A stretch of DNA of 64,000 nucleotides from an uncultured Verrucomicrobiae bacterium (GCA_963762565.1 CAVXLD010000004.1:32001-96000); one strand, 5' to 3'. Counted from the first letter of the stretch, positions 5,625-60,853 are shown. Notes: a model not told the origin generated them from the sequence alone. A program made the numbers and translations.

Positions 5625-5900
5625 TGATTGGTGATTAGTGAATGGCAATTGGTGGGGCTGATGGCTGGTAGGGCGAGGCTCCCGAAAGAGCGGGGGATTA
5701 ACCAAGGCTCAGCTGCTTAACCTTACCAATCAACAAGCGAGGCCTTTAAAACGCGCCGAGCCATGGTCTATCATGGGCCACGGCTCGGCGCGTCCCTCGG
5801 CCTCGCCCAACGATCGGTCCAGTACAGGCAATTTTCCCTTGATTAACTGCTGGGTCTTTCGGGGAGCCTCGCCCTCCCAATCACCAATCACCAATCACCT
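5625..5900. repeat. Family A long-loop REP doublet (GTAG-type) with GTGATTG heptamer flanks, copy A1
   Basis: GGTAGGGCGAGGCTCCCGAA at 5667 ... GCGCCGAGCC / GGCTCGGCGC ... GGAGCCTCGCCCTCCC at 5878; flanked by (GTGATTG)n and (CAATCAC)n. Confidence 0.9.
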
Positions 5901-5907
5901 TTCACGA

Positions 5908-6954
5908 ATGCCGCCCATTACCTCAGCGCCGTCGAAAACCCAGAGCTCGCCTGGCCACTGGCGCGCCACCGTCTGGACCTGGGTTCGCCGTAACGGTTTT
6001 GTCCTTGGGCTATTCACTGCGGTCATCATCGCTTTTTTGTTCCCGCAACCAGGCTCGAGAAAAGGGTGGTTACATCCCGAATTAATCAGCGATTTCGGCA
6101 TCGCGTTGATTCTGTTTCTGCAGGGCCTCTCAATGCCTCTGGAGAAAGTTAAACGCGGCGCAGGAAATTGGCGGCTGCATGTGACTATTCAGGTCTTTAC
6201 ATTCGTCATTTTTCCAATTGTCGGTCTCGCTTTTCAGCTGGTAGAGCCGCACATCTGGATCAACGAACCGCGCGGAATCCAAGAAGGTTTCCTGTATTTG
6301 TGTGTCTTACCTTCAACGGTATCAACGTCTGTTGTGTTAACCTCGGTCGCACGAGGAAATACTGCCGCTGCGATTCTTAGCGCTGCGTTTTCGAACATCG
6401 TCGGTGTCGTGCTGACGCCCTTGTTGGTTAGCTTCTTAATGCAGGCCACCGGCCAATCGGGCCCGATCGGCCCGCTTCTGTTTCAGATAACCTGTTTGAC
6501 GCTTCTTCCGTTCGCCGTGGGAGTTGGCCTTCGACGTTTTATCCAGGCTTGGATCGACGCCAACAAAGCATGGGTTAATCTGATCTGTAATTCCGTAATT
6601 CTATTTATTGTTTATACTGCGTTCTGCGACTCCGTGAGCGAACGAATCTGGGATAAATACGGCCTCGTTCTTACCGTGGGAGTACTTCTATCTGTCGTCC
6701 TCCTCTTCGCAATCATGTCGCTGTTGATTTATCTGACTTCCTTAGCCGCGAAGTTCAACCGGGAAGACGGGATCGCCGTTTACTTTTGTTCGGTGAAGAA
6801 AACGCTCGCCATGGGAGTGCCATTGGCAATGCTGATTTTCGGGTCTCGCGCTGACCTCAGCCTAATTCTTTTGCCGATCATGTTTTACCACCCACTGCAG
6901 TTGTTTGTGAACGGCCTGCTAGCGAACAGGTGGGCGCGTGAAGCGAAAACGTGA
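5908..6954 (+). CDS. Bile acid:sodium symporter family (SBF-like/YfeH) transporter
   Basis: Multi-TM protein with LCVLPSTVS and SVKKTLAMGVP motifs. Start trimmed to ATG 5908 because the upstream frame is repeat A1. Confidence 0.88.
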   Translation: MPPITSAPSKTQSSPGHWRATVWTWVRRNGFVLGLFTAVIIAFLFPQPGSRKGWLHPELISDFGIALILFLQGLSMPLEKVKRGAGNWRLHVTIQVFTFVIFPIVGLAFQLVEPHIWINEPRGIQEGFLYLCVLPSTVSTSVVLTSVARGNTAAAILSAAFSNIVGVVLTPLLVSFLMQATGQSGPIGPLLFQITCLTLLPFAVGVGLRRFIQAWIDANKAWVNLICNSVILFIVYTAFCDSVSERIWDKYGLVLTVGVLLSVVLLFAIMSLLIYLTSLAAKFNREDGIAVYFCSVKKTLAMGVPLAMLIFGSRADLSLILLPIMFYHPLQLFVNGLLANRWAREAKT

Positions 6955-7226
6955 TTGGTGATTAGTGATTGGTGGTTGGTGGGGCTGATGGCTGGTAGGG
7001 AGAGGCTCCCGAAAGAGCGAGGGATTGACCAAGGCTCAGCTAAGTAAACCTCACCAATCAACAAGCGAGGTCTATTAAGCGCGCCGAGCCGTGGTCTATC
7101 GTGGGTCACGGCTCGGCGCGACTCTCGGCCCCGCTCAACGACTGGTCCAGTGCAGGCAGTGTTCCCTTGATTAAGCGCTGGGTCTTTCGGGGAGCCTCGC
7201 CCTACCAATCACCAATCACCAATCAC
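6951..7226. repeat. Family A long-loop REP doublet, copy A2 (close direct copy of A1)
   Basis: Core 6994-7206 aligns by eye along its whole length with 5667-5878, with the same heptamer flanks. Confidence 0.9.
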
Positions 7227-7789: not shown

Positions 7790-7863
7790 TGCCTTAGCAG
7801 TAACGCACCTTACTGCAACTCACTTGTGAGGGGATTCGTGGCCCGTCGCACGGGGTGAGCCAA

Positions 7864-8067
7864 GTAATCAGTAAGACAGTAATCAGTGGTTAAGACGAAG
7901 CCGCGATAGGAGTAAGGCCAAGCCGTAACCAAGCTTTGTTGTTGAGGCGAGCCGCAAGTGCCGCTTAAGATTGATGCAGGATCCCTCAGCGTCTCAAAAA
8001 AATGGCTGGAGCGAGTGCCATCGAATGGATGCATGCCTTTCCACTGATTACTGATTGCTGATTACTG
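7864..8067. repeat. Inverted pair of GTAATCA heptamer arrays
   Basis: GTAATCAGTAAGACAGTAATCAGTGG at 7864 and CCACTGATTACTGATTGCTGATTACTG at 8041; same unit at about 26457 and 60757. Confidence 0.75.
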
Positions 8068-8108
8068 CTTGCTGGCGCGCCTCTCACCTTCACCTCTCAA
8101 CCTCTCCA

Positions 8109-13248: not shown

Positions 13249-13404
13249 ACCGGCCAAGTCCCTTACCCAGGGAAACTCCGCCGAATGGTCCGACGCGTCA
13301 ATGCTGAAGAAGCCAGGAGCCAGAATCCAGGAGCCAGGAGGGGGCGCTTCTCGCCTTGGCATGTGGCCCACTTTGACTCTATGATTCTGCCAGCTTCCAA
13401 TTCG

Positions 13405-15308: not shown

Positions 15309-15448
15309 GGTGAGAAGTGGGAAGTGAGAAGTGATTGGTGATTGGTGATTGGTAGGGCGAGGCTCCCGAACTACGATATAAATTTCGCGAAGCACCGCGT
15401 CTTCGACGAGCTGTCGGCAACTACGCCTGTCCGTGCGCCGAGCCGTGG
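15309..15448 (+). repeat. Family A single long-loop REP (A4) preceded by GTGAGAA/GTGATTG heptamers
   Basis: GGTAGGGCGAGGCTCCCGAA at 15351, closing GCGCCGAGCCGTGG at 15435. Confidence 0.8.
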
Positions 15449-15653
15449 CCCAGCGTGTCGAACCGCTGGGCGATGCGTCCCATAAGTCACATCAGTCCCA
15501 TAAGCCTATCCGTATCCGTCTGCACGCCTACCACGCCCCGCCTCATAGCCCGTTTCTAGCGCCCGATCCATCCACCAAACTCGTAACTTGCGAATCATGT
15601 TCGCAAGCCGGAGCTTACCCCGGCAACTGAAAATTAAACCTGGAATCTGTATC

Positions 15654-16049
15654 ATGACTGATCCAATCAAACCAGATCCACTGCAGGACGAAGTGCACGC
15701 TCCCCGGACAAGCGAACCGAAACGAGATGGGGCCAGCGCGCTGGAATATCTAAAAAGTGAAAATGGTCCCTGGCTTCCGATCGTCGTCGGAGGATCCGCT
15801 CTGTTGATCGCGGCGGGCTATTTCTTAGGGCGATATTATGTACAACTCCATGCTCAAACCCCAACAGATCGCTTTCTTCACGAATTAGAGGATTGGGTAG
15901 AAGAGCGCAGCGAAGGCCTGCCTAAGGTAGTTCGGGACAAACTTAACGCGACCGTTGGATTCTTGGGCGCCTCTCTGCGCAACACGCCAATTAAACAAAT
16001 TGTTTCTCGCTTCCAAAACAAACCGCATCGACCGTTCAACCTCTTCTAA
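15654..16049 (+). CDS. Hypothetical membrane-anchored protein
   Basis: One TM helix (WLPIVVGGSALLIAAGYFLG); stop overlaps the next start (TAATG). Confidence 0.6.
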   Translation: MTDPIKPDPLQDEVHAPRTSEPKRDGASALEYLKSENGPWLPIVVGGSALLIAAGYFLGRYYVQLHAQTPTDRFLHELEDWVEERSEGLPKVVRDKLNATVGFLGASLRNTPIKQIVSRFQNKPHRPFNLF

Positions 16050-16345
16050 TGAATCAAGAAACTACTTCTTCTGTCGGAGCGTCAGAATTTTCGGCTGAAA
16101 ATGTGGATCGCCTCTTCGGCCGGCTGGATGAGAAGGTCCGGCAATCACCGCGTGAAGCGGTGCTGATCGCCTTCTTAGCTGGGGCTCTGTTGCAGGTGTT
16201 CGCCATCCGACACCTAGTATTGACCGCGGCCCGCGTCATTTTGTGGTTAGCGACTCCGGTACTATTTGTGTTTACCGCATGGAGGCTGTTTCAACTGGGC
16301 AACTCCGACGGGGGGTTAGGCCGATTTTTTGGAACTAAACAGTAG
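16049..16345 (+). CDS. Small membrane protein, ElaB/YqjD (DUF883)-like
   Basis: KVRQSPREAVLIAFLAGALL resembles the DUF883 C-terminal motif; coupled to the upstream ORF. Confidence 0.55.
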   Translation: MNQETTSSVGASEFSAENVDRLFGRLDEKVRQSPREAVLIAFLAGALLQVFAIRHLVLTAARVILWLATPVLFVFTAWRLFQLGNSDGGLGRFFGTKQ

Positions 16346-16373
16346 GACTCGCCGATGTCGGCGGATGCCCCAC

Positions 16374-16725
16374 GCGCTTCGCGCGAATAACCAATAGCCG
16401 ATAGCCAATAGCCAAGGGGCCGGTCGCAAGAAAGTCGTGCGCTTTGGCGTGGATCGAATGTGGACGGGCGTAAGCTCGGTGGAGCATCAACCCCAAGATC
16501 ACAAGACCGAAGATCACAATACGGAAAGGTCACGAAGGCCACAAAGACCGATCGTATGAGTCTGATTTTCAGTTTCAGTCTTCGTGTCCTTTGTGATCTT
16601 TCCGTATTGTGAATCTCTAGTTTCTCTGGGAAGTCGAACGCATGATCCACAGGCAAAATCGATAAGCCGATCTTTCGTTGGCTATTGGCTATTGGCTATC
16701 GGCTATTGAGATATGCGCGAAGCGC
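16374..16725. repeat. Nested palindromic repeat cluster
   Basis: Outer (CCAATAG)n ... (CTATTGG)n pair with GCGCTTCGCGC/GCGCGAAGCGC ends; inner CACAATACGGAAAG...CTTTCCGTATTGTG pair. Confidence 0.8.
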
Positions 16726-17720
16726 TAATCGTGCCGCAGAAGCTTGCGGAAATAGTCGATCGATACGGCCAGAATGATCACTGCTCCGACAAAGACCCCT
16801 TGCCAATAGGGATCAATGCCAAAAAGCAGCAGACCATTCCGCAGAACTTCGAGAATAATCGCACCGATCACCGTTCCCAGAATTGTGCCTTCGCCGCCAG
16901 CCAGGTTCGCTCCGCCGATCACAGTAGCAGCAATGACGGCTAACTCATTTCCAGTACCCATGTCAGCCGTCACGCTTCCTAAGTAACTGAATTGAGTGAG
17001 GCCGGCGATTCCGGCCATCAGCGCACACAACATATAGACGATAATCTTAAGGCGATCGACCCGCAGACCCGTCAATCTCGCGGTGCGCTCGCTTCCGCCT
17101 ACCGCGTAGACGTACCGACCCCAAACCGTCCGCGAAAGCAGAATCCAGAAAAATAGGCTGGCGATACAGAAAATAATAAATGGATTCGGGATCCCGAAAA
17201 TATCGCCTCCACCGATCCAGAGAAAAGACCGGTATTCGTCGCCAAATATCGAAATCGGTCGTCCATGCGTAACGATGAGGGCAAAGCTTCTGGCGATGGC
17301 TAGGGTGGCCAGCGTTGGCACAAAGGGAGACATCTTAAGCTGGGTGATACAGAACCCGTTTAAGAGCCCGATACAACAGGCGGCCGAAAGGCTGAGGAGG
17401 ATGGCAAGAGGCTCTGGCACGCCATGGGTTAACAAATAGGCAACGATCACCGCCGTCATGCCAAACACCGATCCCACCGAAAGGTCGATTCCGCCGGTTA
17501 GGATGACGCAGGTCATACCCATCGCCACGATCCCAACGAACGAGAAATTCGTCGTAATATTGGCGATATTCTGGAGGTTTCGAAACTGTGGGATAAAGAT
17601 TGCCAGGACGAGCAACATCAAGATGAGGGCGCCAAGGATCCCTATCTCGCGGGGAAGGCGAACAGTCCGCCGGCGTGACGTCTTTTCTGGATGGGGGGGC
17701 GCCACGGCTTCGGAGTTCAT
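16725..17720 (-). CDS. Monosaccharide ABC transporter permease (RbsC family)
   Basis: GMTCVILTGGIDLSVG, GRYVYAVGG..ARLTG, ELAVIAATVIGG motifs. Confidence 0.92.
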   Translation of the reverse strand: MNSEAVAPPHPEKTSRRRTVRLPREIGILGALILMLLVLAIFIPQFRNLQNIANITTNFSFVGIVAMGMTCVILTGGIDLSVGSVFGMTAVIVAYLLTHGVPEPLAILLSLSAACCIGLLNGFCITQLKMSPFVPTLATLAIARSFALIVTHGRPISIFGDEYRSFLWIGGGDIFGIPNPFIIFCIASLFFWILLSRTVWGRYVYAVGGSERTARLTGLRVDRLKIIVYMLCALMAGIAGLTQFSYLGSVTADMGTGNELAVIAATVIGGANLAGGEGTILGTVIGAIILEVLRNGLLLFGIDPYWQGVFVGAVIILAVSIDYFRKLLRHD

Positions 17721-17919: not shown

Positions 17920-18876
17920 ATGCCAAACCAGAAATTGTTTCTCTTGGCGGGCGTGGCGGTTTGCTCGCTCGCTTTGCCGGCAGGCCTCCATGCCGCCGGA
18001 AAACAGAAGACCTTCGCGATTGTCCCGAAGTCGATTAGCATCTCATTCTACAACGATGTGGAAAAAGGTTGTAAGGAGGAAGGCGCCAAGCTGGGCGTGA
18101 ATGTCATTTATACGGGTCCAGACACCGCCGACGCCGCAAAACAGGTGCAAGTCTTACAGGATTTGGTCAGTCGCGGTGTCGATGGCTTTGCCGTTGCTCC
18201 CATGGACGGCGATGCCGTGATTGGAGTGATCGAATCTGCGACTAAGAAAGGAATCAAAGTGATCTGTTTCGACTCGGACTCTCCCAAATCGCAACGGACC
18301 TGTTTTGTTGGTACGAACAATGAACAAGGTGGCTACGAAGGCGGCAAAGCCTTTGCGTCGATGTTACCCAAAGGCAAATTTGCAGTTCTTACGGGTGGTT
18401 TGGCTTCCGTAAACCATAACCAGCGTGGCGACGGATTTCGTAAAGCATTGAAAGAGGCAGGAGGTGACTACACCGAAATCTCGGGTTCACCCTTCCCCTG
18501 CAATGACGACGCCGCAAAATCGATCCAGATCATCCAAGACACCTTGACTCGGTACCCCGATCTGGATGGGTTTTTCTTTTCGGGCGGCTGGCCTCTTTTC
18601 GGCGCTCCGGAAGCCTATCTGCGGGCAATGGGCAAGCACCTTGACGACATCAAGAGTAAGAAGTTTGTGGTCATCTCTTTCGACACCTTGCCGGAAGAGC
18701 TCAAAATCGTGAAACAGGGCGCCTGCAATGGCCTGATCGGCCAACGACCCTACGCGATGGGAGTCAAGAGCGTCGATATTCTGAATGACCTTACCGAAGG
18801 CAAAACCGTCCCTGCGGTTGTTGATACCGGCGTTGACGTCGTGACTTCGGCGAATGTGGATCAATTCTTGAAGTAA
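17920..18876 (+). CDS. Sugar ABC transporter substrate-binding protein (RbsB family), possibly inositol-binding
   Basis: Signal peptide, ICFDSD, VGTNN, GQRPYAMG motifs; adjacent to the iol operon. Confidence 0.9.
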   Translation: MPNQKLFLLAGVAVCSLALPAGLHAAGKQKTFAIVPKSISISFYNDVEKGCKEEGAKLGVNVIYTGPDTADAAKQVQVLQDLVSRGVDGFAVAPMDGDAVIGVIESATKKGIKVICFDSDSPKSQRTCFVGTNNEQGGYEGGKAFASMLPKGKFAVLTGGLASVNHNQRGDGFRKALKEAGGDYTEISGSPFPCNDDAAKSIQIIQDTLTRYPDLDGFFFSGGWPLFGAPEAYLRAMGKHLDDIKSKKFVVISFDTLPEELKIVKQGACNGLIGQRPYAMGVKSVDILNDLTEGKTVPAVVDTGVDVVTSANVDQFLK

Positions 18877-18886
18877 TCGACCCGGT

Positions 18887-18912
18887 GGGCGGAAAGCGCC
18901 TGCTTTCCGCCC
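18887..18912. terminator. GC-rich hairpin between convergent genes, probable terminator
   Basis: GGGCGGAAAGC-gcct-GCTTTCCGCCC perfect 11-bp stem; no clear U-tract. Confidence 0.5.
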
Positions 18913-19004
18913 GTCCAGACGAATCTGTCGCCAACTCTTATTTCTTACGAGTCAACCTTTTCGGCGCGATGTTAGACTAGGCAATAGTTAATGCTCGTCG
19001 TCCC

Positions 19005-19820
19005 TCAGCCCTTCATTGGAACCGTAATTGGGTTCCCGGCCCAATTTTGGGATACCCAATCGTACTCCGGGTCGTTGATCGCGGTTATCTTCCTGACATC
19101 CCCGGCCAGAAAATTCAGGTAATAGGCATTCGTTCCCGGCGCTTTGACAACTGGGTGGTATCCTTCGTGGATCAGGACCAAATCACCATTCTGAACTGGA
19201 ATCGCCACATCTAGATCCGTGTCTCGAGTATAGATCCGCTGAATCGCGAAACCGTTCTCCGGACGCAACCGATAGTAATAGGTCTCTTCGTGGTAAGAAG
19301 AATTATCGCGAGTGTCATGGCGATGGGGAGGAAAACTCGACCAATTGCCGCTCGGAGTATGAATCTCGTAAACGGTTAATCGCTCGGTGAGTTCGTCGGA
19401 ATCAGCCAGAGCACTCACGCCCCGTTTCACGTTAGCGTCACCGCGCACCGATGTCTTGATCTCGTCTTTTGAGATTCGCCGGGCCGGCAATTTACCTTCA
19501 GCAGGAGCGCCACCGATGGCCACCTCGATCGACTTGGCAGCTCGCAGCGAAAAATTGCTCCGGGGAGGGAGATAATAAATATCCGTGAGTTCCTCAAATA
19601 CCGACCTCCGCGAGAATGAAAACTCTTCCTCACCAAAGGCACAGAACCCTTCACCACTCAGCGGTACGACGACAAACTCTGACTCTTCCGTGTTGAACCG
19701 TTGAGTCTGCTCGGGCTCCAAAGCGAGGACGCGGAAGGAAAGATAACGCCACTCGGCTTCCTTCGGCGTAACGTTGATGCGAAACGGATTCGAATAGTTA
19801 GATCGATAATGGCGGTTCAC
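19005..19820 (-). CDS. iolB: 5-deoxy-glucuronate isomerase
   Basis: TPSGNWSSFPPHRHD, HEETYYY, GYHP motifs. Confidence 0.93.
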   Translation of the reverse strand: MNRHYRSNYSNPFRINVTPKEAEWRYLSFRVLALEPEQTQRFNTEESEFVVVPLSGEGFCAFGEEEFSFSRRSVFEELTDIYYLPPRSNFSLRAAKSIEVAIGGAPAEGKLPARRISKDEIKTSVRGDANVKRGVSALADSDELTERLTVYEIHTPSGNWSSFPPHRHDTRDNSSYHEETYYYRLRPENGFAIQRIYTRDTDLDVAIPVQNGDLVLIHEGYHPVVKAPGTNAYYLNFLAGDVRKITAINDPEYDWVSQNWAGNPITVPMKG

Positions 19821-20836
19821 GGCTGTATCTCCGAAACTTTAACCGGGCGGTTCTCCTTCCAACTACGACTTGCCGCGATTGCCAGCCGCAGCGTCTCGAG
19901 CGCGTCTTCTGCGCCCGGAGACGGCATTTGGCCGGACTTGATCGCTTCAAAAAATGCTTGTAACTCCAGCCGATACGCGGCCTCGAAACGATCGGGAAAG
20001 TTTTCGTAATGATCGTAGCGAGCGCCAAATTCGCGCGACAAAGTCATCGGCGTTTTCTGCGGCGCTTCGATCACAACTTTGGCGTCTGCACCGGCTACTT
20101 CCGTCCGGATATCATAACCCCACTTTGAGCGCCGGGACGTTTCCACAACCCCTAACGCTCCATTCTTAAACTTGAGCAGGGTAACGGCCGTATCGCAGTC
20201 CTGGGCTTGGGCGAAGCGGTCGTCGATCAACACGGATCCCCAGGCGGACACCTCTTCAACCTCACCCACCAAAAACCGAGCCAAGTCGAGATCGTGAACC
20301 GCCATGTCCAGAAAGGAACCGCCGCTTTGAAGCAGAAACTTGAGCGGCGGCGGATAGGTATCACGGCTTAAAGCCCGAAAGGTTTCGATGCGGCCGAGCT
20401 CTCCCTGATCAATCCTTTTCTTCGCCTCCGCGTAACCCGGGTCATAGCGGCGCATGAAACCGAGCTGCACAAAAGCGCTCTTCTTTTGAATCAAATCAAC
20501 GACCCTCTTTGTCTCAGCCAAATCGAGGGCAATCGGCTTCTCGCTAAACACAGCTTTCCCAGCCTGCACGGCGGTCTCGATCAGTCGGGCATGCGTATCG
20601 GTCGGGGTAACGATAATCACGACATCGACCGATGGATCCAGAATTGCTTCTTCCGTGCTGACGATCGCCCAATCCGCACCTGATAATTCGCGCCCACGCT
20701 CAGCCGCCTTCAGATTCGGATCGGCTACCACCCTGACGCGAACACCATTGATCGACGCTAGATTTCGCAGATGAGTCTCGCCCATCCGCCCGCAACCGAG
20801 AAACGCAACGCCAATTTCCGCTTTCGCTTTGGTCAT
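19817..20836 (-). CDS. iolG: Inositol 2-dehydrogenase family (Gfo/Idh/MocA)
   Basis: GCGRMG, EKP, GFMRRYD, DMAVHDLD, GYDIRTEV. Confidence 0.8.
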   Translation of the reverse strand: MTKAKAEIGVAFLGCGRMGETHLRNLASINGVRVRVVADPNLKAAERGRELSGADWAIVSTEEAILDPSVDVVIIVTPTDTHARLIETAVQAGKAVFSEKPIALDLAETKRVVDLIQKKSAFVQLGFMRRYDPGYAEAKKRIDQGELGRIETFRALSRDTYPPPLKFLLQSGGSFLDMAVHDLDLARFLVGEVEEVSAWGSVLIDDRFAQAQDCDTAVTLLKFKNGALGVVETSRRSKWGYDIRTEVAGADAKVVIEAPQKTPMTLSREFGARYDHYENFPDRFEAAYRLELQAFFEAIKSGQMPSPGAEDALETLRLAIAASRSWKENRPVKVSEIQP

Positions 20837-21843
20837 TGAATCTCCTCTAGACGAACCACACGCCCTTCCTTATGGCTCCGAGTCGCTGCAATCCCAATTC
20901 GCAATGCTTCGACGGCATCGACCGCGCCCGGCGTTGGAGGACGGCCTTCTTGCACGCAAGCGAAGAACGACTCCAGCTCCGCTTGAAACGCGTCTTTGAA
21001 TCGATCCATGAAGAAGTAAAAATGATCTTCCTCGGAGCCCCCCTCCCGGTAATGACGCAACGGGCTCTTGCGTTCGGCGTGAACCACCAGTTTACCGCGT
21101 TCTCCGAATACTTCGGTTACAATGTCGTAGCCGTAGATCGCTCGACGTGAATTCTCGATCACCCCGAGCGCTCCGTTCTTAAACCGCAAGAGGGTGGTCG
21201 CGGTATCAACATCACCAAAGTCGGCCGCATCTTTAAGGAACCGGGCAGCTCCCCAGGCGCTGACCGATTCTACTTCGCCCACCAGAAATCGAGCCAGATC
21301 AATCTCGTGAATCATCTGATCCAAGAAGAGTCCGCCGCTCGTCTCAAGGTATTCCCGAGGAGGCGGCGCCGGGTCGCGGCCGACCGACCTGAATTGGTCA
21401 ATGCGGCCAATTAAGTTTCGATCGATCTTTCTCCGAGCTTCCGCATAACCGGTATCAAACCTTCGCTGGAACCCGATTTGGAAAGGAATAGCGGCTTGCT
21501 CGACCGCATGGAGCGCCTTCTTGGTGCGTTCCAGGTCCAATGCAACCGGCTTCTCACAAAACACCGCTTTGCCGGAGCGCGCGCCGGCCTCAATCAAATC
21601 TGCGTGGGTGCCGGTTGGGGTACAGATTACGACCGCATCGATCTCTTTTGATGCGAAGACTTCGGCAGGATCGCTGATCGCTTTTGCGCCCGGAGCCTTG
21701 GCGGCAATCTTTTCCGCTGCTTCCAGAATGGCATCACAAACCGTGGTCAAGGAAACACTGGGAGACCCGATCAATGTCCTGGCATGCTCTTGGCCAATCC
21801 GGCCGGCGCCGAGCAGAGCAACTCGAGTTCGTTTAGTATTCAT
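20833..21843 (-). CDS. iolG: Inositol 2-dehydrogenase family (Gfo/Idh/MocA), second paralog
   Basis: GAGRIG, CEKP, GFQRRFD, SGGLFLDQMIHEID, NSRRAIYGYD. Confidence 0.82.
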   Translation of the reverse strand: MNTKRTRVALLGAGRIGQEHARTLIGSPSVSLTTVCDAILEAAEKIAAKAPGAKAISDPAEVFASKEIDAVVICTPTGTHADLIEAGARSGKAVFCEKPVALDLERTKKALHAVEQAAIPFQIGFQRRFDTGYAEARRKIDRNLIGRIDQFRSVGRDPAPPPREYLETSGGLFLDQMIHEIDLARFLVGEVESVSAWGAARFLKDAADFGDVDTATTLLRFKNGALGVIENSRRAIYGYDIVTEVFGERGKLVVHAERKSPLRHYREGGSEEDHFYFFMDRFKDAFQAELESFFACVQEGRPPTPGAVDAVEALRIGIAATRSHKEGRVVRLEEIQ

Positions 21844-22772
21844 CTCTTGTTTTGAAAATCAGCTGCGATCCGTCGTGAAACCTGCAGGGCCGATAGCCCG
21901 TATTTATCGAGCAGAAAATCGTTGGGCGCAGATTCACCCCATTTGTCTTCGAGGCCGTAGCGGATCACCCGGCGTGGAGAATTCGCGGAGAGCAGCTCAG
22001 CCACCAGGCCGCCAAGCCCGCCGAAGATGCTATGTTCTTCCACGGTGAAAATGAGGTCGTAAGCGGAACAAGCGTCTATCAATGCGGCCTCGTTCAAAGG
22101 CTTAATCGAAGGAATGTGGAGAACGCCGAGCTCGATCTGTTGTTTCGCCAATTCGTTCGCCGCTTCAAAACAACGAGACGATTGCGGACCGGTCGAGATC
22201 AACAGGGCATGCTCGCCCCGGCGCAGCCAACGAATTTCACCGAGAGTGAATTGGTAATCCGCCGTAAACACATCCGCGCTGGCATCGCGAGTCAGTCGAA
22301 GATAGACCGGGCCCTCATATTCTGTGGCCCATTTAATCATAGCGGCGCATTCGTATTGATCCGCCGGCGCCAGCAGGGTCATCCCCGGCATCGCCCGCAT
22401 GATGGCCAGGTCCTCGACATCGTGGTGCGTTTTCCCGGTGTAACCGGTCATCAACCCCGAGTAAGCCGCACCAATTTTTACATTGGCGTTGGTCTGCGCA
22501 ACGAGCATCCGAATTGGATCAATCGCCCGATGAGTGAAGAAGACAGTGAAAGTCGAAAGCCAAGGAACAAAGCCCACCGCTGCCATACCGACCGCAACGC
22601 CCACCATGTTTTGCTCAGCGATCCCCATCTCCAAAAACCGGTCCGGATGAGCAGCCGCGAATTTGTCCGCTTTGGTGGAATTCGCGAGATCTCCATCGAG
22701 CATCACGACCCGCTGATCTTCCTTCGCCAAAGCTACCAGGGTGTCAGCCCAGACATCTCTTAGTGCTTTCAT
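21840..22772 (-). CDS. Split transketolase, C-terminal (pyrimidine-binding) subunit
   Basis: EMGIAEQNM, THH.VED, PVYLRL, TVEEHSIFGGLG. Confidence 0.92.
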   Translation of the reverse strand: MKALRDVWADTLVALAKEDQRVVMLDGDLANSTKADKFAAAHPDRFLEMGIAEQNMVGVAVGMAAVGFVPWLSTFTVFFTHRAIDPIRMLVAQTNANVKIGAAYSGLMTGYTGKTHHDVEDLAIMRAMPGMTLLAPADQYECAAMIKWATEYEGPVYLRLTRDASADVFTADYQFTLGEIRWLRRGEHALLISTGPQSSRCFEAANELAKQQIELGVLHIPSIKPLNEAALIDACSAYDLIFTVEEHSIFGGLGGLVAELLSANSPRRVIRYGLEDKWGESAPNDFLLDKYGLSALQVSRRIAADFQNKR

Positions 22773-23647
22773 TTTGCAGCCTCCGTGATCTGAAGTTCAC
22801 GCCGGGCAAGGTCGAGCTCAGCCGGGTTCGCAACCTTGGAATGCCATTCGAATTTCCCTTCGGTGAACGACAACCCTTTCCCTTTGAGCGTGCGCGCTAC
22901 AATCATGGTCGGGCGGCCAACCGGCGGTTGAGCTTTGCATTCCCGGATAGCGGGCAGGATTTCGTCGAAGCGATGGCCGTCGATCTGGACGACGCGCCAA
23001 CCCAGGTTCGCGAAAATCGCCGGCAAATCCACGTTATTCCAGGGATCGCGCCGGTCGCCTCGACCGTCAGCATCGTTCTGTTTCAACCAGCCAAACTGTT
23101 GGAGCCCGTTCGAATCCAGGATCGCGGTCAGATTCCCTAGCTGATAACGCGGGGCTAGGTGGAGTCCCTCCCAAATCATACCCTCTTGCAGTTCGCCGTC
23201 CCCGATCATGACAAAGGAATGAAAGCGTTCCTGTTTTTTCTGGGCCCCCAAGGCGAATCCGATCCCGACCGAAAGCCCCATTCCCAACGATCCGGTAGAT
23301 GTTTCGAGACCCGGTAGCTTGGTGACGTCTGGATGGCCTTGCAGCCGGGAATTGCCTTTGTCGAATGTCTTCAATTCTTCGACTGGAAAAAATCCTCTGA
23401 GCGCCATCACAGTGTATAGCCCGATGGCGGCATGACCTTTGGAAAGAATGAAACGGTCGCGCTCCGGCCATTTCGGTTCTTCCGGCCTGATCTCCATGCC
23501 CCGAAAGAAAAGGCTGATCAGCAGATCCATGGCTGACATGGGTCCGCCCACATGGCCGGCGCCGCTTCCGGCAACCGTGCTAAGCACCAACCAACGGCCT
23601 TGCCGCGATAGTTCCTCGAGATCGGAATAATCGGTATCTAGTTTCAT
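22769..23647 (-). CDS. Split transketolase, N-terminal (ThDP diphosphate-binding) subunit
   Basis: GHVGG, RDRFILSKGH, LQGHP, TGSLG, GDGELQEG...N ThDP motif. Confidence 0.93.
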   Translation of the reverse strand: MKLDTDYSDLEELSRQGRWLVLSTVAGSGAGHVGGPMSAMDLLISLFFRGMEIRPEEPKWPERDRFILSKGHAAIGLYTVMALRGFFPVEELKTFDKGNSRLQGHPDVTKLPGLETSTGSLGMGLSVGIGFALGAQKKQERFHSFVMIGDGELQEGMIWEGLHLAPRYQLGNLTAILDSNGLQQFGWLKQNDADGRGDRRDPWNNVDLPAIFANLGWRVVQIDGHRFDEILPAIRECKAQPPVGRPTMIVARTLKGKGLSFTEGKFEWHSKVANPAELDLARRELQITEAAK

Positions 23648-24513
23648 GTGATCAGTGGTTCTAGGTAGCGTCGATTGTTGGCCGCTATCTGGGTAGGATC
23701 GTCCGGGGTAGTGTCTTGTTCGACCACTAGCCAGCCGTTGTAGCCGGCTTGGCGCAGCGAATCGATGACGTCGGGCACTCTCGCGATGCCCTCACCCAGC
23801 GGAGCGAAGATGTAGGATTTTAAGGCCTGAGCAAAACTCCAACCGTTCTCCCGGGACTCCTTGAGCACCTGACCGTCGACATCTTTGATATGAACGTAAC
23901 CGACACGGTTACCGTATTTCTTTAGTGCCCGCAGGTTGTCACCGCCGCCGTAAGCAAGATGGCCGCAGTCCAGGCACCAGCTCACCAACTCCGGGTCCGT
24001 TTCGTCCAGGAGCCGGGTGGTTTCTTCCTCGGTTTCTACGTAGGTGCCGACGTGATTATGGAAAACGACCCGTACCCCAATCGAAGCCAGTTCTTTGGCC
24101 AGATCGTTTAGTCCGGTCCCGAGCGATTTCCATTGGTCATCAGTTAGGGCGCCGCTGGCATCAACGTGCCCGGCCTCACCGCGACGTCGATCGTCGCCGC
24201 TGTCGGCTGCGATCAAGTAGCCACCTCCAGCCGACTGGAAAAACCGGCCGATCTCGACTGCCCGAGCGATTTCGGCCTCACGTTTTTGACGATTACGCAG
24301 CTCCAAACCAACAAAGCCACCCAGCATTTGCAGGCTCCGCTGCTGGAGGTCGGACCGTAGCTTGGCGGTTTCTCGCTCCATGTTCATGCCCCATTCGGTG
24401 GCAACGTACCCCGCGGCCACCATCTCATCCAACAACGCTGGATAAGGCACCCAGGGCCGATAGTCGGTTACGTCTCCGTTGTTCCAATTAACCGGCGCAG
24501 TGGCGAGCTTCAT
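23644..24513 (-). CDS. iolE: Myo-inosose-2 dehydratase (TIM barrel)
   Basis: APVNWNN, FHNHVGT, LDCGH, HIKD, WLVVEQD; lies within the iol operon. Confidence 0.8.
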   Translation of the reverse strand: MKLATAPVNWNNGDVTDYRPWVPYPALLDEMVAAGYVATEWGMNMERETAKLRSDLQQRSLQMLGGFVGLELRNRQKREAEIARAVEIGRFFQSAGGGYLIAADSGDDRRRGEAGHVDASGALTDDQWKSLGTGLNDLAKELASIGVRVVFHNHVGTYVETEEETTRLLDETDPELVSWCLDCGHLAYGGGDNLRALKKYGNRVGYVHIKDVDGQVLKESRENGWSFAQALKSYIFAPLGEGIARVPDVIDSLRQAGYNGWLVVEQDTTPDDPTQIAANNRRYLEPLIT

Positions 24514-26402
24514 GCTAAAACCGGGCGCTGCTTCTTGGTGGCTTCCTCGTAGTTCACCCGGGTTGTCTTGGTGTGATCCGCCGAGCTAACTTCTGCGACC
24601 GGCACATCCCACCAGGTTCCCATTCCCGGCATTCGGTTTTCGGGATCGACCGGGATCACCACTACCGTGATCCGGTCTGACTTACGCGCTTTCTCCAGCG
24701 CCGCTTTCACTTCGCTGGAAGTGGTCGCGAAGATGGATAGGGCGCCCATCGATGCCGCATGTTTCTGGAAGTCGACCGGAACATAATCGCCCGCCGGTGC
24801 ACCCTCTTTCCCGTCGCGGAAACGGAGTTCGTTACCGAAATCGGCTACCCCGACCGCCCGCTGCAAACCGAGAATGCATTGGAACCCGTGGTTGTCGACC
24901 AATACAATCGTGATCCGAATTCCTTCAGCGACTGCGGTCACGATCTCGGAATTCATCATCAGATAAGAGCCGTCCCCAACCATCACGACGACTTCCCGTT
25001 CCGGTTCCGCCAATTTCACCCCCAGGCCACCTGCGATCTCGTAACCCATGCAAGAATATCCGTATTCGAGGTGATAGGCTTTCGGATCCTCAGGCCGCCA
25101 GAGCCGGAGTAGCTCGCCCGGCAGGCCACCAGCCGCGCAAACGACGGTCGCCTTGCCGCCGAAGCTTTCGTTGACTAATCCGATGACGGCGGTCTCAGCC
25201 AGTTTGCCCGGTGTATCATTCTTTACCGAGCGTATGTCAGTGACTTTGGCATCCCACTCCGCCTTCAGCGATTTTACCTGGCTCCGGTATTCCTGGCTGG
25301 TTCCTCTGTAGCCGCTTTCGCGCAACGCCTGGCTCAATGCACCCAGCGCTCGTTTCGCATCGGCCACGACCGGCAACGCGGCTAGCTTATTCGCGTCCAT
25401 CGGCACCACATTGATGCCGATAAATCGGACCGACGGGTTCTGGTAAGCCGATTTCGACGCGGTGGTGAAATCGCTCAGCCGGGTGCCCAATGCGATCACT
25501 AAATCCGCGTCCACAGCTAACCGGTTTGCACTGGTAGATCCGTTTGATCCAACCGGGCCAGCATTCAGCTCATGGTTCCAATTGAGAACCCCCTTCCCGG
25601 CTTGCGTCTCGCTGATTGGGATCCCGAACTCTTCCACGAAGGCCCGCAAATCTTCGGCTGCCTCGGCGTAAATGGTACCGCCACCCGAAACGATCAACGG
25701 TTTTGACGCACCGGCGATCAACTCTGCCGCCTTACGAATCAGCTCCGGCTCAGGCAATGGCCGGCGCACATGCCAAACCCGGCGCTCGAAAAATTCGACC
25801 GGATAATCGTAAGCTTCGGCCTGAACATCTTCCGGCAAACTAATGGTGACGGCGCCAGTCTCTGCGGGATCGGTCAAGACACGAAAGGCTTCCGGTAAGC
25901 TGGCCAATAATTGTTCGGGTCGGGAGATGCGATCGAAAAACTTCGAAACCGGCCGGAAAGCATCACTTACGCTGACATCTCTTTCCAGAGGATGCTCCAA
26001 TTGTTGAAGCACCGGGTCAGGAATACGATTGGCGAAATAATCGCTGGGCAATAGCAGGACGGGCAACCGATTGACGCTCGCCGCAGCGGCGCCGGTAATC
26101 ATGTTCGTGGCGCCGGGACCAATTGAGGTTGTGCAGGCAAACGTCGCTAACCGGTTTCGATGTTTGGCAAATGCAGCCGATAAGTGGACCATCGCCTGTT
26201 CATTCTGAGGTCGATAAAAGGGCAGCCCTTCTTCCCGAGCCAACTCGACGATGCCTTGACCAAAGCCGGCGACGTTGCCGTGCCCGAAGATACCCCAAAT
26301 CCCTTCGATAAAGCGGCTTTGACGGCCGTCGCGTTCAACGAATTGGCGAGCCAGGAATCGGGTCAGAGCCTGGCCAGTGGTTAGTCGTACGGTACGATTC
26401 AT
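24510..26402 (-). CDS. iolD: 3D-(3,5/4)-trihydroxycyclohexane-1,2-dione acylhydrolase
   Basis: GIFGHGNV, NEQAM, TSIGPGATNM, EYGYSCMGYEIAG, WWDVPVAEVS. Confidence 0.96.
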   Translation of the reverse strand: MNRTVRLTTGQALTRFLARQFVERDGRQSRFIEGIWGIFGHGNVAGFGQGIVELAREEGLPFYRPQNEQAMVHLSAAFAKHRNRLATFACTTSIGPGATNMITGAAAASVNRLPVLLLPSDYFANRIPDPVLQQLEHPLERDVSVSDAFRPVSKFFDRISRPEQLLASLPEAFRVLTDPAETGAVTISLPEDVQAEAYDYPVEFFERRVWHVRRPLPEPELIRKAAELIAGASKPLIVSGGGTIYAEAAEDLRAFVEEFGIPISETQAGKGVLNWNHELNAGPVGSNGSTSANRLAVDADLVIALGTRLSDFTTASKSAYQNPSVRFIGINVVPMDANKLAALPVVADAKRALGALSQALRESGYRGTSQEYRSQVKSLKAEWDAKVTDIRSVKNDTPGKLAETAVIGLVNESFGGKATVVCAAGGLPGELLRLWRPEDPKAYHLEYGYSCMGYEIAGGLGVKLAEPEREVVVMVGDGSYLMMNSEIVTAVAEGIRITIVLVDNHGFQCILGLQRAVGVADFGNELRFRDGKEGAPAGDYVPVDFQKHAASMGALSIFATTSSEVKAALEKARKSDRITVVVIPVDPENRMPGMGTWWDVPVAEVSSADHTKTTRVNYEEATKKQRPVLA

Positions 26403-26843
26403 AAGATGTGAGAGGTGGTTGGTGAGGGGTCAGGTTACCGGGGGCATGCCACAGAAGTAATCAGTAAACAGTAATCAGTGATCGAAAAATGAGGGTCACC
26501 ACGATACGACGAAGCGTGGCGCCGGTTCGGGGGAACACCGGTGGTTGCGTGTGGGGGGGCGTTAAGGGGGACGGTCGACTTTCGTTTGGTTTTCGTTGTG
26601 ATAAAGAAATGAAATCGAATCCTTTCCGTTTCAACCTGAATTTTTGACGAAATTTTAGCGGACCAGACCATCACCACCGCTTCTGGCCGGATCGGTTTTC
26701 CGCTCTTGGAAACATTCGGACCAGCATCCTTCAGACAACCCTCGCCATCATGAAAAAAGAGTTCGAATTGCTTTCGTTGGTCGCAGAAGACGATATCCTT
26801 TTGCTTCCCGGGTTCAGAGAACCGGATCGCCCGACTTAACAGT

Positions 26844-29006: not shown

Positions 29007-29327
29007 GGAAGGGCGAGGCTCCCGAAAGAGCGAGCGGTTGAACAAGGCTCAGCTGCCTAAACCTCGCCAACTACAAGCTAGGTACACAAGCGCGCCGAGC
29101 CATGGTCTATCATGGGCCACGGCTCCGACTTCGCTCTCACTTTGTACCTAGATCACTAACAGCGCCGAAAAGCTACGTCGGACAAGTCGGCGCGTCTTTT
29201 GGCGTTGGTCGATGATAGGTTGAGTGCAGGCGATTTTCCCTTGACTACAGACTGGGTCTCTCAGGAGCCTCGCCCCGCCAATCGCCAATCACCAATCACC
29301 AATCACCAATCACCAATCACCAATCAC
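29007..29327. repeat. Family A doublet A5 (A1/A2 subfamily) with nested family C insert at 29124-29186
   Basis: Aligns with A1 except for 63 bp TCCGACTTCGC...GCTACGTCGGACAAG inserted in the GGC^TCGGCGCG arm; long (CAATCAC)n tail. Confidence 0.88.
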
Positions 29328-35351: not shown

Positions 35352-35447
35352 ATGACAGATAACAAATCACAAATGACAGATCGGCTTCAGGTCGCCGGTT
35401 TGACGCAATATTTGTCATTTGTCATCTGTCATCTGTCGTTTGTCATG
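35352..35447. repeat. Palindromic ATGACAA/TTGTCAT heptamer array
   Basis: ATGACAGATAACAAATCACAAATGACAGA ... TTTGTCATTTGTCATCTGTCATCTGTCGTTTGTCAT. Confidence 0.8.
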
Positions 35448-37554: not shown

Positions 37555-37559
37555 GTACG

Positions 37560-37798
37560 CGTTTGGCGTTCGGCGTTTGGCGTGAGCAACTGTGGGCGTA
37601 GCCCAACGATGGCACAGGATGCCGCGAATCCGCTCCGCGACCGAATGGGACTTATAGGACCTATGGGACCTATGGGTCGTATCTCATTAGTCCCAGTAGT
37701 CCCATGGGTCCCATCCGTTCGAATCGCCCAACGCTCGCCCCCCGCGCCGAACGCCGAACGCCGAACGCCAAACGCCAAACGGCTAACGTCTAACGCGA
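37560..37798. repeat. Nested palindromic repeat cluster
   Basis: Outer (GGCGTTC/T)n ... (GAACGCC)n; inner (ATGGGACCT)n ... (AGTCCCAT)n. Confidence 0.82.
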
Positions 37799-37845
37799 AC
37801 GGTTTACCGACCGGTAATCTGTGCTTATCGTAGTTTTATTACGCT

Positions 37846-58443: not shown

Positions 58444-58744
58444 GCCAGGAGCTAGAATCTAGGAGGGCGTGCGGCGTGAAACGCCCGGTAGGGCGAGGCT
58501 CCCGAATAGCCAATCGGTTTAGCCGAAGCATTTCTGTAGCACGCAGCCCCGCCGCAGTGTTACGCCGTGAAACGCGCCGAGCCGTGGTATACCGTGGGCC
58601 ACGGCTCGGCGCGTCTTTAGACCTTGCACATTGACCTCTTGCCGTCTGTGCGGTTTACCCTTGGTGAATCGCACAGCTTTTCGGGAGCCTCGCCCCACCA
58701 AATTGGGGACCACACGCCCTCCTAGCTCCTAGATTCTAGCTCCT
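58444..58744. repeat. Family A doublet A10 (58487-58699) nested in a CTAGGAG/CTCCTAG heptamer palindrome
   Basis: AGGAGCTAGAATCTAGGAGGGCGTG ... CACGCCCTCCTAGCTCCTAGATTCTAGCTCCT surrounds a full doublet. Confidence 0.87.
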
Positions 58745-60490: not shown

Positions 60491-60853
60491 CTTTTTCTAG
60501 GTTTCTTCTGCGCACCCGTGTGCTGTGATGAGCCACCTCCTTTCCGGTTGAGGTGTTACTAACCCGAAGGGAGGTGAGCTTCCCGGCGAGGTAAGCAAAC
60601 CAGACCGCGGGGAGACAACGAGTTCAATGTAACGAAATGGTCATCGAAAACGTGCCACCTGCCGGGGAGAAGATGCTCGAAGAACGCGCCGTAGTAACGG
60701 CCCGGGCAAGGGAAGGCGCGCGTCCCCGCGCGCCGAGTTGTTCCGCTTATTTCGAAGTAATCAGTAATCAGTGTCCGCCGTGGCTCGGCTCGGATCAGAA
60801 CTGCTTACCGCTTACCGCTTACTGCTCACTTCGGGAACAAGGGCTGCGAGCGA

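Follow-up and report, generated by a model that had tools for sequence, protein, structure and literature searches.

A candidate transketolase-dependent lower branch of inositol catabolism encoded in an operon of an uncultured Verrucomicrobiae bacterium

The canonical Bacillus-type route of myo-inositol catabolism ends in dihydroxyacetone phosphate, acetyl-CoA and CO2. Its lower part is served by the PfkB-type kinase IolC, the class II aldolase IolJ and the CoA-acylating malonate-semialdehyde dehydrogenase IolA. The iolC gene is a core clustered gene of canonical iol clusters (excerpt of PMC9430895), and in the IolC-DUF2090 variant the DUF2090 domain is described as the commonest aldolase form (excerpt of PMC9007349). 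The subject of this work is a seven-gene operon on the minus strand (19005–26402) of one 64-kb window, the whole stretch of DNA that was analysed, from an uncultured Verrucomicrobiae bacterium. The four upper steps of the Bacillus-type pathway have clear homologues in this operon, whereas a pair of genes for a split transketolase (TK) is located where the kinase, the aldolase and the CoA-acylating dehydrogenase would sit.

Split TKs have been recruited to sugar catabolic clusters before, and the apulose-4-phosphate transketolase of D-apiose catabolism is reportedly one of them, as Carter et al. are said to have found in 2018. Its likeness to the window TK is one of description, and its donor differs in being phosphorylated on the leaving fragment. 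The closest functional precedent is SqwGH from the sulfo-TK pathway of Clostridium sp. MSTE9, which cleaves sulfofructose and transfers the ketol to glyceraldehyde 3-phosphate (G3P) to form xylulose 5-phosphate (excerpt of PMC9594981). As far as the excerpt describes it, that system shares with the one proposed here a two-subunit TK in a catabolic cluster, a non-phosphorylated 2-ketose with an anionic tail, and an anionic aldehyde delivered to a dedicated dehydrogenase or reductase, which is a likeness of logic by description and not a claim of family membership. The tail is a sulfonate there and would be a carboxylate here, two rounds of cleavage occur there against the one envisaged here, and the partners here are iol genes. 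A TK has also been proposed in tartrate formation by grapevine and Gluconobacter, where 5-keto-D-gluconate would be cleaved to tartaric semialdehyde that is then taken up by a succinate-semialdehyde dehydrogenase (SSADH), a proposal given as unconfirmed in the excerpt of PMC7970118. The substrate in that case is the 2-hydroxy analogue of 2-deoxy-5-keto-D-gluconate (DKG), and a cut between C4 and C5 would likewise give a C4 semialdehyde acid beside a C2 ketol, with an SSADH-type enzyme proposed to act next. That proposal concerns a side activity of a housekeeping TK, whereas the window appears to encode a dedicated, diverged split TK within a catabolic operon.

The seven consecutive open reading frames (ORFs) are as follows, in order of transcription, with thiamine diphosphate abbreviated as ThDP.

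24510–26402, minus strand: iolD, first operon gene, 630 aa, ThDP-dependent trihydroxycyclohexane-1,2-dione acylhydrolase; TIGR04377 at 898.7 bits (cut-off 715), three TPP_enzyme domains.
23644–24513, minus strand: iolE-like gene, 289 aa, xylose-isomerase-type TIM barrel; PF01261, and TIGR04379 over its full length at 223.2 bits (below the cut-off of 290).
22769–23647, minus strand: TK-N, N-terminal subunit of the split TK with the ThDP/metal-binding PP domain, 292 aa; PF00456 at 161.9 bits, NF004559 positions 12–282.
21840–22772, minus strand: TK-C, Pyr and C-terminal domains of the split TK, 310 aa; PF02779 and PF02780, NF004559 positions 318–622.
20833–21843, minus strand: iolG-1, inositol 2-dehydrogenase, 336 aa; TIGR04380 at 380.6 bits (cut-off 355).
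19817–20836, minus strand: iolG-2, second Gfo/Idh/MocA inositol dehydrogenase paralogue, 339 aa; TIGR04380 at 351.6 bits (just below 355).
19005–19820, minus strand: iolB, 5-deoxy-glucuronate isomerase, last operon gene, 271 aa, with a GTG start within the GTGA overlap; TIGR04378 at 269.7 bits (cut-off 205).

An earlier note on this DNA had claimed this gene order together with six 4-nt overlaps, and the coordinates and all junctions read accordingly, with ATGA at five junctions and GTGA at the iolG-2/iolB junction. The overlaps on both sides of the TK genes make this pair integral to the operon. The gene names proposed in that note stand in part. IolD, IolG-1 and IolB exceed the NCBIfam equivalog cut-offs, and the upper Bacillus-type pathway is thus represented, while the iolE and second iolG products score under theirs, so that these two names hold at the family and not the equivalog level. 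Because the upper four steps have homologues in the operon, DKG is expected as an intermediate. Gene absences, which all refer to this window, were assessed on 56 ORFs, of which 54 (non-overlapping, each 90 aa or longer) were scanned with Pfam and two more with NCBIfam. Among these 56 ORFs there is no PfkB protein (IolC), class II aldolase (IolJ), DUF2090 protein or Aldedh-family protein (IolA), which bears out the further claim that iolC, iolJ and iolA are absent from the window. The reading favoured here, to which slightly better than even confidence is given, is that the seven genes form one translationally coupled myo-inositol operon in which a specialised split TK takes the place of IolC and IolJ, cleaving DKG without ATP by way of D-malate semialdehyde.

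TK-N and TK-C are adjacent in this order, overlap by ATGA, and together span positions 12–622 of the 627-position transketolase model NF004559. The closest TK-N proteins (67–94% identity) are labelled simply as transketolase and, where a taxon is given, belong to Chthoniobacterales, Terrimicrobiaceae or Verrucomicrobia. The best solved relative of both chains is the split TK of Carboxydothermus hydrogenoformans (6yaj for TK-C, E 1.7e-72; 6yak for TK-N, E 1.5e-70), which has the same two-chain architecture. TK-N contains the GDG...N cofactor motif ('migDGelqEG...dsN' aligned to 6yak) and keeps His32, His72 and His105, which align with 6yak histidines corresponding to H26, H66 and H100 of the Escherichia coli TK. 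The H100 position, here His105, marks hydroxylated donors and separates TKs from the synthase of 1-deoxy-D-xylulose 5-phosphate (excerpt of PMC13663882). In TK-C, Glu53 at the position of the ThDP-activating Glu411 and His116 at the position of His473 are invariant in the alignment of relatives. Judged by its fold and catalytic machinery as read from these matches, the window protein is a transketolase.

The canonical sugar-phosphate pocket (Arg358, Ser385, His461, Asp469 and Arg520 in E. coli-type numbering) is not conserved in full. Alignment with human TK pairs Arg5, Ser32 and Arg162 of TK-C with Arg318, Ser345 and Arg474, and the two arginines and the serine are therefore kept, while Tyr104 replaces human His416 and Thr112 replaces human Asp424. 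By spacing, the replaced residues correspond to E. coli-type His461 and Asp469, both of which are listed among the substrate-binding residues (excerpt of PMC4601599). The pocket motif of the window TK-C reads AAY-SGLMTG-YT-GKTH against the canonical ATH-AGLTVG-ED-GASH. The C. hydrogenoformans enzyme differs in the same way, with the canonical His...Glu-Asp...Ser-His and no insertion, whereas the window TK has Tyr...Tyr-Thr...Lys-Thr-His and an 11-residue Arg-rich insertion ('GRGDRR') just after the metal-binding loop of TK-N. The nearest full-length relatives of TK-C keep Tyr104 and Gly-Lys-Thr-His. Since the His and Asp positions are replaced, the window TK is not a canonical pentose-phosphate TK. 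Both anion-binding arginines and the serine are invariant within the clade, and the alignments thus describe a pocket in which the arginines predicted to hold the anionic tail stay while the rest is rebuilt.

An exhaustive profile-free search with TK-C gave 17,854 representatives at E<=0.001, with identity at about 40% already within the first thirty. For a survey of gene neighbourhoods, an alignment of near TK-C relatives was compared with one genome per species, and the best 80 of at least 600 matching stretches were kept as loci (numbered L001 onwards). Their six-frame ORFs were searched with the window proteins, and cluster representatives and singletons were annotated by Pfam and NCBIfam; ORFs in G+C-rich loci were chosen by guidance from third-position G+C content (GC3), and gaps were covered by a Pfam scan. 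TK and iol genes lie side by side in 24 of the 80 loci, which by record and tree labels belong to Deinococcota, Verrucomicrobiota, Chloroflexota, Thermomicrobiota, Actinomycetota, Bacillota and Eremiobacterota. An IolD-like protein is encoded in 15 of the surveyed loci, an IolB-like protein in 17 and both in 14. Three further loci, L049, L055 (OY969429.1) and L063, encode IolB with an acetolactate-synthase-like (ALS-like) ThDP enzyme at the place of IolD. The Thermaceae-type loci L001 and L010 have the order IolD-IolE-(tartrate-type dehydrogenase)-TKN-TKC-IolG-IolB, and each gene is 44–64% identical to that of the window; retention of gene order with this level of identity throughout speaks for an operon that moves as one block. 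The iolE-like product, probably an inosose dehydratase of a divergent lineage, shares 52–58% identity with its positional counterparts in L001, L007, L009, L010 and L012. Orthologues of iolG-2 (61–73% identity) are found in L004, L005, L007, L009, L012, L013 and L025, and directly follow TK-C in L004, L005, L007, L009 and L013. The operon probably also serves a second inositol isomer.

A maximum-likelihood tree of TK-C was built from 79 rows and seven canonical split TKs by a quick search with Shimodaira–Hasegawa-like approximate likelihood-ratio (SH-aLRT) support only. The window TK-C falls in a clade of 18 loci (99% SH-aLRT), 15 of which are iol-linked, and further iol-linked groups are placed near this clade. 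The iol label changes six times on the tree, compared with 17–22 times in the ten shuffles listed of 200. The co-occurrence of TK and iol genes predicted in the earlier note is therefore seen both in the window's own clade and overall, across seven phyla. The first non-iol member of the clade, L028, is on a 3.1-kb contig; the other two are actinobacterial (L006 and L011) and are considered below.

Several observations concern the relatives of this TK. The sister clade of the window TK holds 23 loci, mostly from Chloroflexota, and most of them carry a different recurrent cluster around position 10000 of each (L015, L016, L018, L021, L023, L027, L030, L034–L037, L044, L046, L047, L054, L058, L060, L061 and L072). 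This cluster contains varying subsets of genes for a cupin, TK-N, TK-C, a short-chain dehydrogenase/reductase, a metallo-beta-lactamase-fold protein, a pyruvate phosphate dikinase-like protein, a transaldolase, an aldehyde dehydrogenase (ALDH), a UPF0261 protein and a GntR regulator, with some loci having only two or three of these, and it looks like an uncharacterised TK-dependent catabolic pathway. Microbacterium sp. BWT-B31 has two split TK pairs in direct succession, the second of them more distant (38% and 35% identity; L043, 9117–12700). Other cultured bacteria that carry the TK include Paenibacillus validus NBRC 15382 and Curtobacterium sp. MCJR17_020. Split-TK C-chains with about 42% identity to that of the window are encoded on Pantoea megaplasmids under the annotation 'transketolase family protein'. 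In Eremiobacterota, the ThDP enzyme at the IolD place (L055, 4667–6475; L063, 4662–6470) scores 383–393 bits to acetolactate synthase against 312–332 bits to IolD (cut-off 715) and may be a non-orthologous ring-opening enzyme.

The lower pathway is scarce in the related loci as well. Neither the window nor 23 of the 24 related loci showed a kinase, an aldolase or a CoA-acylating malonate-semialdehyde dehydrogenase. Pfam scans of the survey loci yielded no class II aldolase and no DUF2090 protein, and none of their ALDHs scores best to IolA/MmsA among the 25 best families listed. An IolC-type PfkB protein is present in one of the 80 loci (L013), which is one of the 17 with IolB, in line with the rarity of iolC beside TK-iol clusters that had been predicted. 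These results bear on the alternative that ordinary IolC, IolJ or DUF2090 and IolA are encoded elsewhere in the genome and that the TK pair is accessory, handling pentose-phosphate intermediates or a ketose derived from D-chiro-inositol, pinitol or scyllo-inosamine. The view of the genome taken here is the 64-kb window alone, and among 1,024 genomes in which three core genes cluster, 810 had the fourth at a distance of more than 10 kb (excerpt of PMC9430895). The kinase gene near the TK in L013, the DegT aminotransferases of L008 and L013, which hint at other cyclitols, and the two IolG paralogues of the window operon fit this alternative too. Against it, the other 16 IolB-bearing TK loci are without any PfkB homologue, no ALDH has IolA/MmsA as its best family, the TK genes are translationally coupled between iolE and iolG in an operon conserved as a whole across phyla, and the accessory genes described next are without a role in the canonical route. 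On balance an accessory TK beside an ordinary pathway is considered unlikely.

In the two Chloroflexota loci, the DegT-type aminotransferase is accompanied by a protein of 860–900 aa without a Pfam match (L008, 4437–7151 and 12026–13282; L013, 1895–3133 and 12022–14616), and the aminotransferase perhaps acts on inosamine.

Enzymes suited to a C4 hydroxy acid are encoded in nine of the 24 iol-TK loci. A protein of the TIGR02089 tartrate dehydrogenase family, above cut-off, is encoded between iolE and TK-N in L001 and L010, and its best solved relative is a tartrate dehydrogenase/decarboxylase (3flk). A LeuB-like gene lies directly 3' of TK-C in L055 and L063. Enzymes of the tartrate dehydrogenase/DmlA/LeuB family use (2R)-hydroxy acids as substrates, D-malate among them. 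SSADH-type ALDHs are found in L001, L022 and L025 and, in two copies, in L005, although for the one in L022 the best-scoring model is that of a lactaldehyde dehydrogenase, and a YdiJ-like FAD/Fe-S protein, a D-2-hydroxyacid dehydrogenase by family name, is found in L002, L004, L005 and L025. A further example is provided by plasmid P20 of Curtobacterium sp. MCJR17_020 (NZ_CP126261.1), whose TK-C is 51.7% identical to that of the window and has its best matches among the survey loci in L006, L043 and L011. The order in the RefSeq annotation is transporters, LacI, iolG, iolB, iolD, an NAD-dependent SSADH, two IclR regulators, TK-N, TK-C, a PfkB kinase and a phosphoenolpyruvate (PEP) carboxykinase. 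Overlaps of 4 nt join the SSADH gene to iolD and the PfkB gene to the end of TK-C, and the GTP-dependent PEP carboxykinase gene is next (L081, 20981–23950, equal to NZ_CP126261.1 73548–76517). The PfkB protein matches 1-phosphofructokinase and hexose-kinase models and not IolC, and no iolC, iolJ or iolA is listed over approximately 95% of the plasmid in the PLSDB gene table, which is incomplete by its own account. Since PfkB and PEP carboxykinase follow TK-C, one mobile island holds both the iol-TK genes and a link to central metabolism. The canonical route has no use for PEP carboxykinase or for the recurrent SSADH-, D-malate- and YdiJ-type genes, and this gene content points to a C4 hydroxy-acid product.

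Related TKs without iol genes occur in Bacillaceae and Staphylococcaceae (L041, 1149–13037; L042, 1786–15986; L050, 1774–19291) together with genes for tripartite ATP-independent periplasmic (TRAP) transporters, an ALDH and two Zn-dehydrogenases, which are idonate-5-dehydrogenase-like and IolM-like but below cut-off. L041 and L042 further encode an ALDH of the SSADH type and a tartrate dehydrogenase that scores above cut-off, and have a pyrophosphate-dependent phosphofructokinase-like (PPi-PFK-like) gene preceding TK-N; L050 instead has Fe-dependent alcohol dehydrogenases and a 2-hydroxyacid dehydrogenase. These clusters may serve the use of an acid sugar, for instance a 5-keto-aldonate, through the TK.

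The steps of the proposed pathway are assigned by homology as far as DKG. IolG would oxidise inositol and the IolE-like protein would dehydrate the inosose, IolD would open the ring to give 5-deoxy-D-glucuronate, and IolB would isomerise this to DKG. Among the pathway intermediates, only DKG carries the CH2OH-CO- end needed by a TK donor, and its maker IolB is retained. When its name is read from the keto end, the hydroxyls of DKG appear to be D-threo as in fructose and xylulose, a reading that agrees with the homology of IolJ to fructose-bisphosphate aldolase. DKG would then correspond to xylulose 5-phosphate in which -CH2-COO- replaces -CH2-OPO3. The TK would cut DKG between C5 and C4, hold the C2 ketol on ThDP, and pass it to an aldose phosphate (G3P, erythrose 4-phosphate or ribose 5-phosphate) to form a ketose phosphate of the pentose phosphate pathway. 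The leaving fragment would be (R)-3-hydroxy-4-oxobutanoate, or D-malate semialdehyde, the carboxylate analogue of D-glyceraldehyde 3-phosphate. An SSADH-type ALDH would oxidise it to D-malate, and such genes fit because the deoxy analogue of D-malate semialdehyde is the substrate of SSADH-type enzymes. D-malate would then yield pyruvate and CO2 through a tartrate/D-malate or LeuB-type dehydrogenase, or oxaloacetate through a YdiJ-type flavoprotein, and PEP carboxykinase makes sense because a C4 dicarboxylate would precede it. No ATP would be spent on DKG. The malate semialdehyde product suggested in the earlier note is thus compatible with the C4-acid enzymes of the nine loci and is refined to the D form, with D-malate following, by the chirality read for DKG.

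The fate of the C2 unit could be different, with the ThDP enzyme cleaving DKG mainly as a lyase or with a non-phosphorylated acceptor, so that the unit is released as glycolaldehyde (then glycolate and glyoxylate) or as an unphosphorylated ketose that is phosphorylated later. The YdiJ-like proteins also match GlcD (approximately 193–226 bits, below cut-off) and a solved glycolate oxidase, the two ALDHs of L005 would be enough for two aldehydes, and the sugar-phosphate-contacting His461 and Asp469 are changed. The PfkB gene after TK-C on the Curtobacterium plasmid and the PPi-PFK-like gene before TK-N in L041 and L042 could supply a later phosphorylation. These kinases are, however, phosphofructokinase types that act on ketose phosphates, and most loci have no kinase at all. 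In addition, the clade keeps the two phosphate-binding arginines and the serine without exception, and SqwGH uses G3P (excerpt of PMC9594981). An aldose phosphate acceptor is favoured because these arginines and the serine are retained and because phosphofructokinase-type genes are found beside the TK in two lineages, and the lyase-type mechanism is judged quite improbable.

The donor could also be another carboxylate-tailed ketose, such as 5-keto-D- or 5-keto-L-gluconate, which would be converted to tartrate semialdehyde and tartrate, with the iol link reflecting a side route of inositol oxidation. In favour of such a donor, the in-operon dehydrogenases of L001 and L010 carry the tartrate dehydrogenase name, L041, L042 and L050 combine the TK with TRAP transporters and idonate 5-dehydrogenase- or IolM-like genes, and IolD and IolB are not in view in L005 and L025. 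The family named for tartrate dehydrogenase nevertheless also oxidatively decarboxylates D-malate. The 14 loci with both IolD and IolB, and the three with IolB and an ALS-like ThDP enzyme, would produce DKG and not 5-ketogluconate, and no IolM/IolN-type genes were seen among the scanned window ORFs. Although a TK has been proposed for 5-keto-D-gluconate itself (excerpt of PMC7970118), a dedicated 5-ketogluconate route is judged very unlikely for this operon.

A number of findings weigh against cleavage of DKG by the window TK. The choice of DKG as the substrate comes from pathway logic and gene context. The enzymes for the D-malate semialdehyde and D-malate steps would lie outside this window, in which no Iso_dh or FAD-linked 2-hydroxyacid dehydrogenase is present among the 56 ORFs, and in 15 of the 24 iol-TK loci no such C4-acid enzymes are found within approximately 10 kb. 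Within the window's own clade, L006 and L011 have no iol genes in view. In L004 (9 kb), L005 and L025 (21 kb each) and L017, the TK is accompanied by IolE and IolG with no IolD or IolB in view, and the IolE of L005 is a bona fide equivalog (344.6 bits). The IolC-like kinase of L013 (258 bits against a cut-off of 300) belongs to an iolD-DegT-PfkB-iolB block that lies 4 kb away from the TK, and the Curtobacterium PfkB, whose gene is translationally coupled to TK-C, could in principle phosphorylate DKG. Finally, Tyr104, Thr112 and Lys114 are conserved across the whole 70-row clade, including the 23 loci of a different cluster type, and therefore mark a broader specialisation and not DKG itself. 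As an iol-specific substrate signature these three residues were rejected, since non-iol TKs carry them too; the features confined to the window's clade are TK-C His81 and the insertion in TK-N alone. The suggestion of the earlier note that the TK acts on DKG consequently stands in part: the survey, the rarity of IolC and the C4-acid genes agree with it, while the reaction is deduced and the kinase genes, the loci lacking IolD and IolB, and the missing aldehyde enzyme in the window count on the other side.

Outside the operon, four features flank its two ends.

26456–26483, minus strand: operon leader, a heptamer repeat (ACTGATT type) present four times, 54–81 nt upstream of the iolD start.
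Approximately 18880–18920, no strand assigned: hairpin rich in G+C, GGGCGGAAAG...CTTTCCGCCC, read by eye in the gap where iolB and the binding-protein gene converge.
17920–18876, plus strand: sugar-type periplasmic binding protein; PF13407 at 218 bits, all NCBIfam matches under cut-off.
16725–17720, minus strand: ribose-type ABC permease; PF02653, divergent from the binding-protein gene.

The hairpin after iolB is probably a terminator, although a promoter/terminator pattern scan gave a site count not above that of shuffles and did not include this hairpin among its sites. The binding protein is a possible uptake component, tied to the operon by position, and binding-protein and permease genes of similar type are found in L001, L055, L062 and L063. 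No ABC ATPase was found between 15400 and 19000, and 15400–16700 contains only ORFs without a family match. A further Gfo/Idh/MocA oxidoreductase of 390 aa (62491–63663) is encoded 36 kb from the operon and has no NCBIfam match at E<=1e-25. An Rfam scan of the window at gathering thresholds gave zero matches, and hence no ThDP riboswitch was recognised ahead of an operon with two ThDP enzymes; a tRNA scan of the window found none.

The leader repeat is one of many in the window. A tandem-repeat scan identified numerous short repeats with a 7-base period and 3–8 copies, with units such as CCAATCA, GTGATTG, ACTGATT and CGCCGAA, and the 10-mer ACTGATTACT with at most one mismatch occurs 11 times against 1.6 expected. 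Besides the leader (26456–26483), these repeats are located at 5877–5899, 6951–6981, 7204–7226, 7863–7887, 8043–8074, 13311–13340, 15310–15353, 16386–16415, 16678–16708, 29278–29327, 35410–35446, 37559–37583, 37745–37801, 58719–58744, 60756–60772 and 60803–60826. They are mostly between ORFs, with some inside ORF calls, and resemble cyanobacterial heptamer repeats.

Taken together, the gene content suggests a TK-dependent lower branch of inositol catabolism, ATP-saving and ending in malate, that is not yet described. It is a tentative proposal, held with a little less than even confidence, that many bacteria in at least seven phyla use this ATP-free TK branch and that the large uncharacterised clade with Tyr, Thr and Lys at the positions of the canonical His, Asp and Ala/Pro is specialised for carboxylate-tailed ketoses (5-keto-aldonates) and not for sugar phosphates. 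Myo-inositol from phytate is a major carbon source in soil and gut. A full-text literature search, with subscription journals and bioRxiv supplements outside its scope, found no paper that ties transketolase to DKG or inositol catabolism. Joint matches for transketolase and inositol concern only housekeeping tktA in the excerpted text (PMC12130570), and the 'novel pathway' of Dysosmobacter is presented in the excerpt of PMC13311982 as involving an alternative aldolase and not a TK. Genome-based prediction of inositol use depends on iolC together with iolB, iolD and iolE (excerpt of PMC9430895), and because of this dependence on iolC such surveys would overlook users of the TK branch. If the proposed branch is real, surveys and pathway-gap tools miss or misjudge inositol users in Verrucomicrobiota, Chloroflexota, Deinococcota, Actinomycetota and other phyla. 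It would also represent a third recruitment of a split TK to a non-phosphorylated sugar, after sulfoquinovose and apiose, and the first with a carboxylate tail, and for biocatalysis it would provide a natural TK that takes acid sugars. In the organisms themselves, it would be a physiological source of D-malate and would give a role to widespread 'tartrate dehydrogenase' genes.

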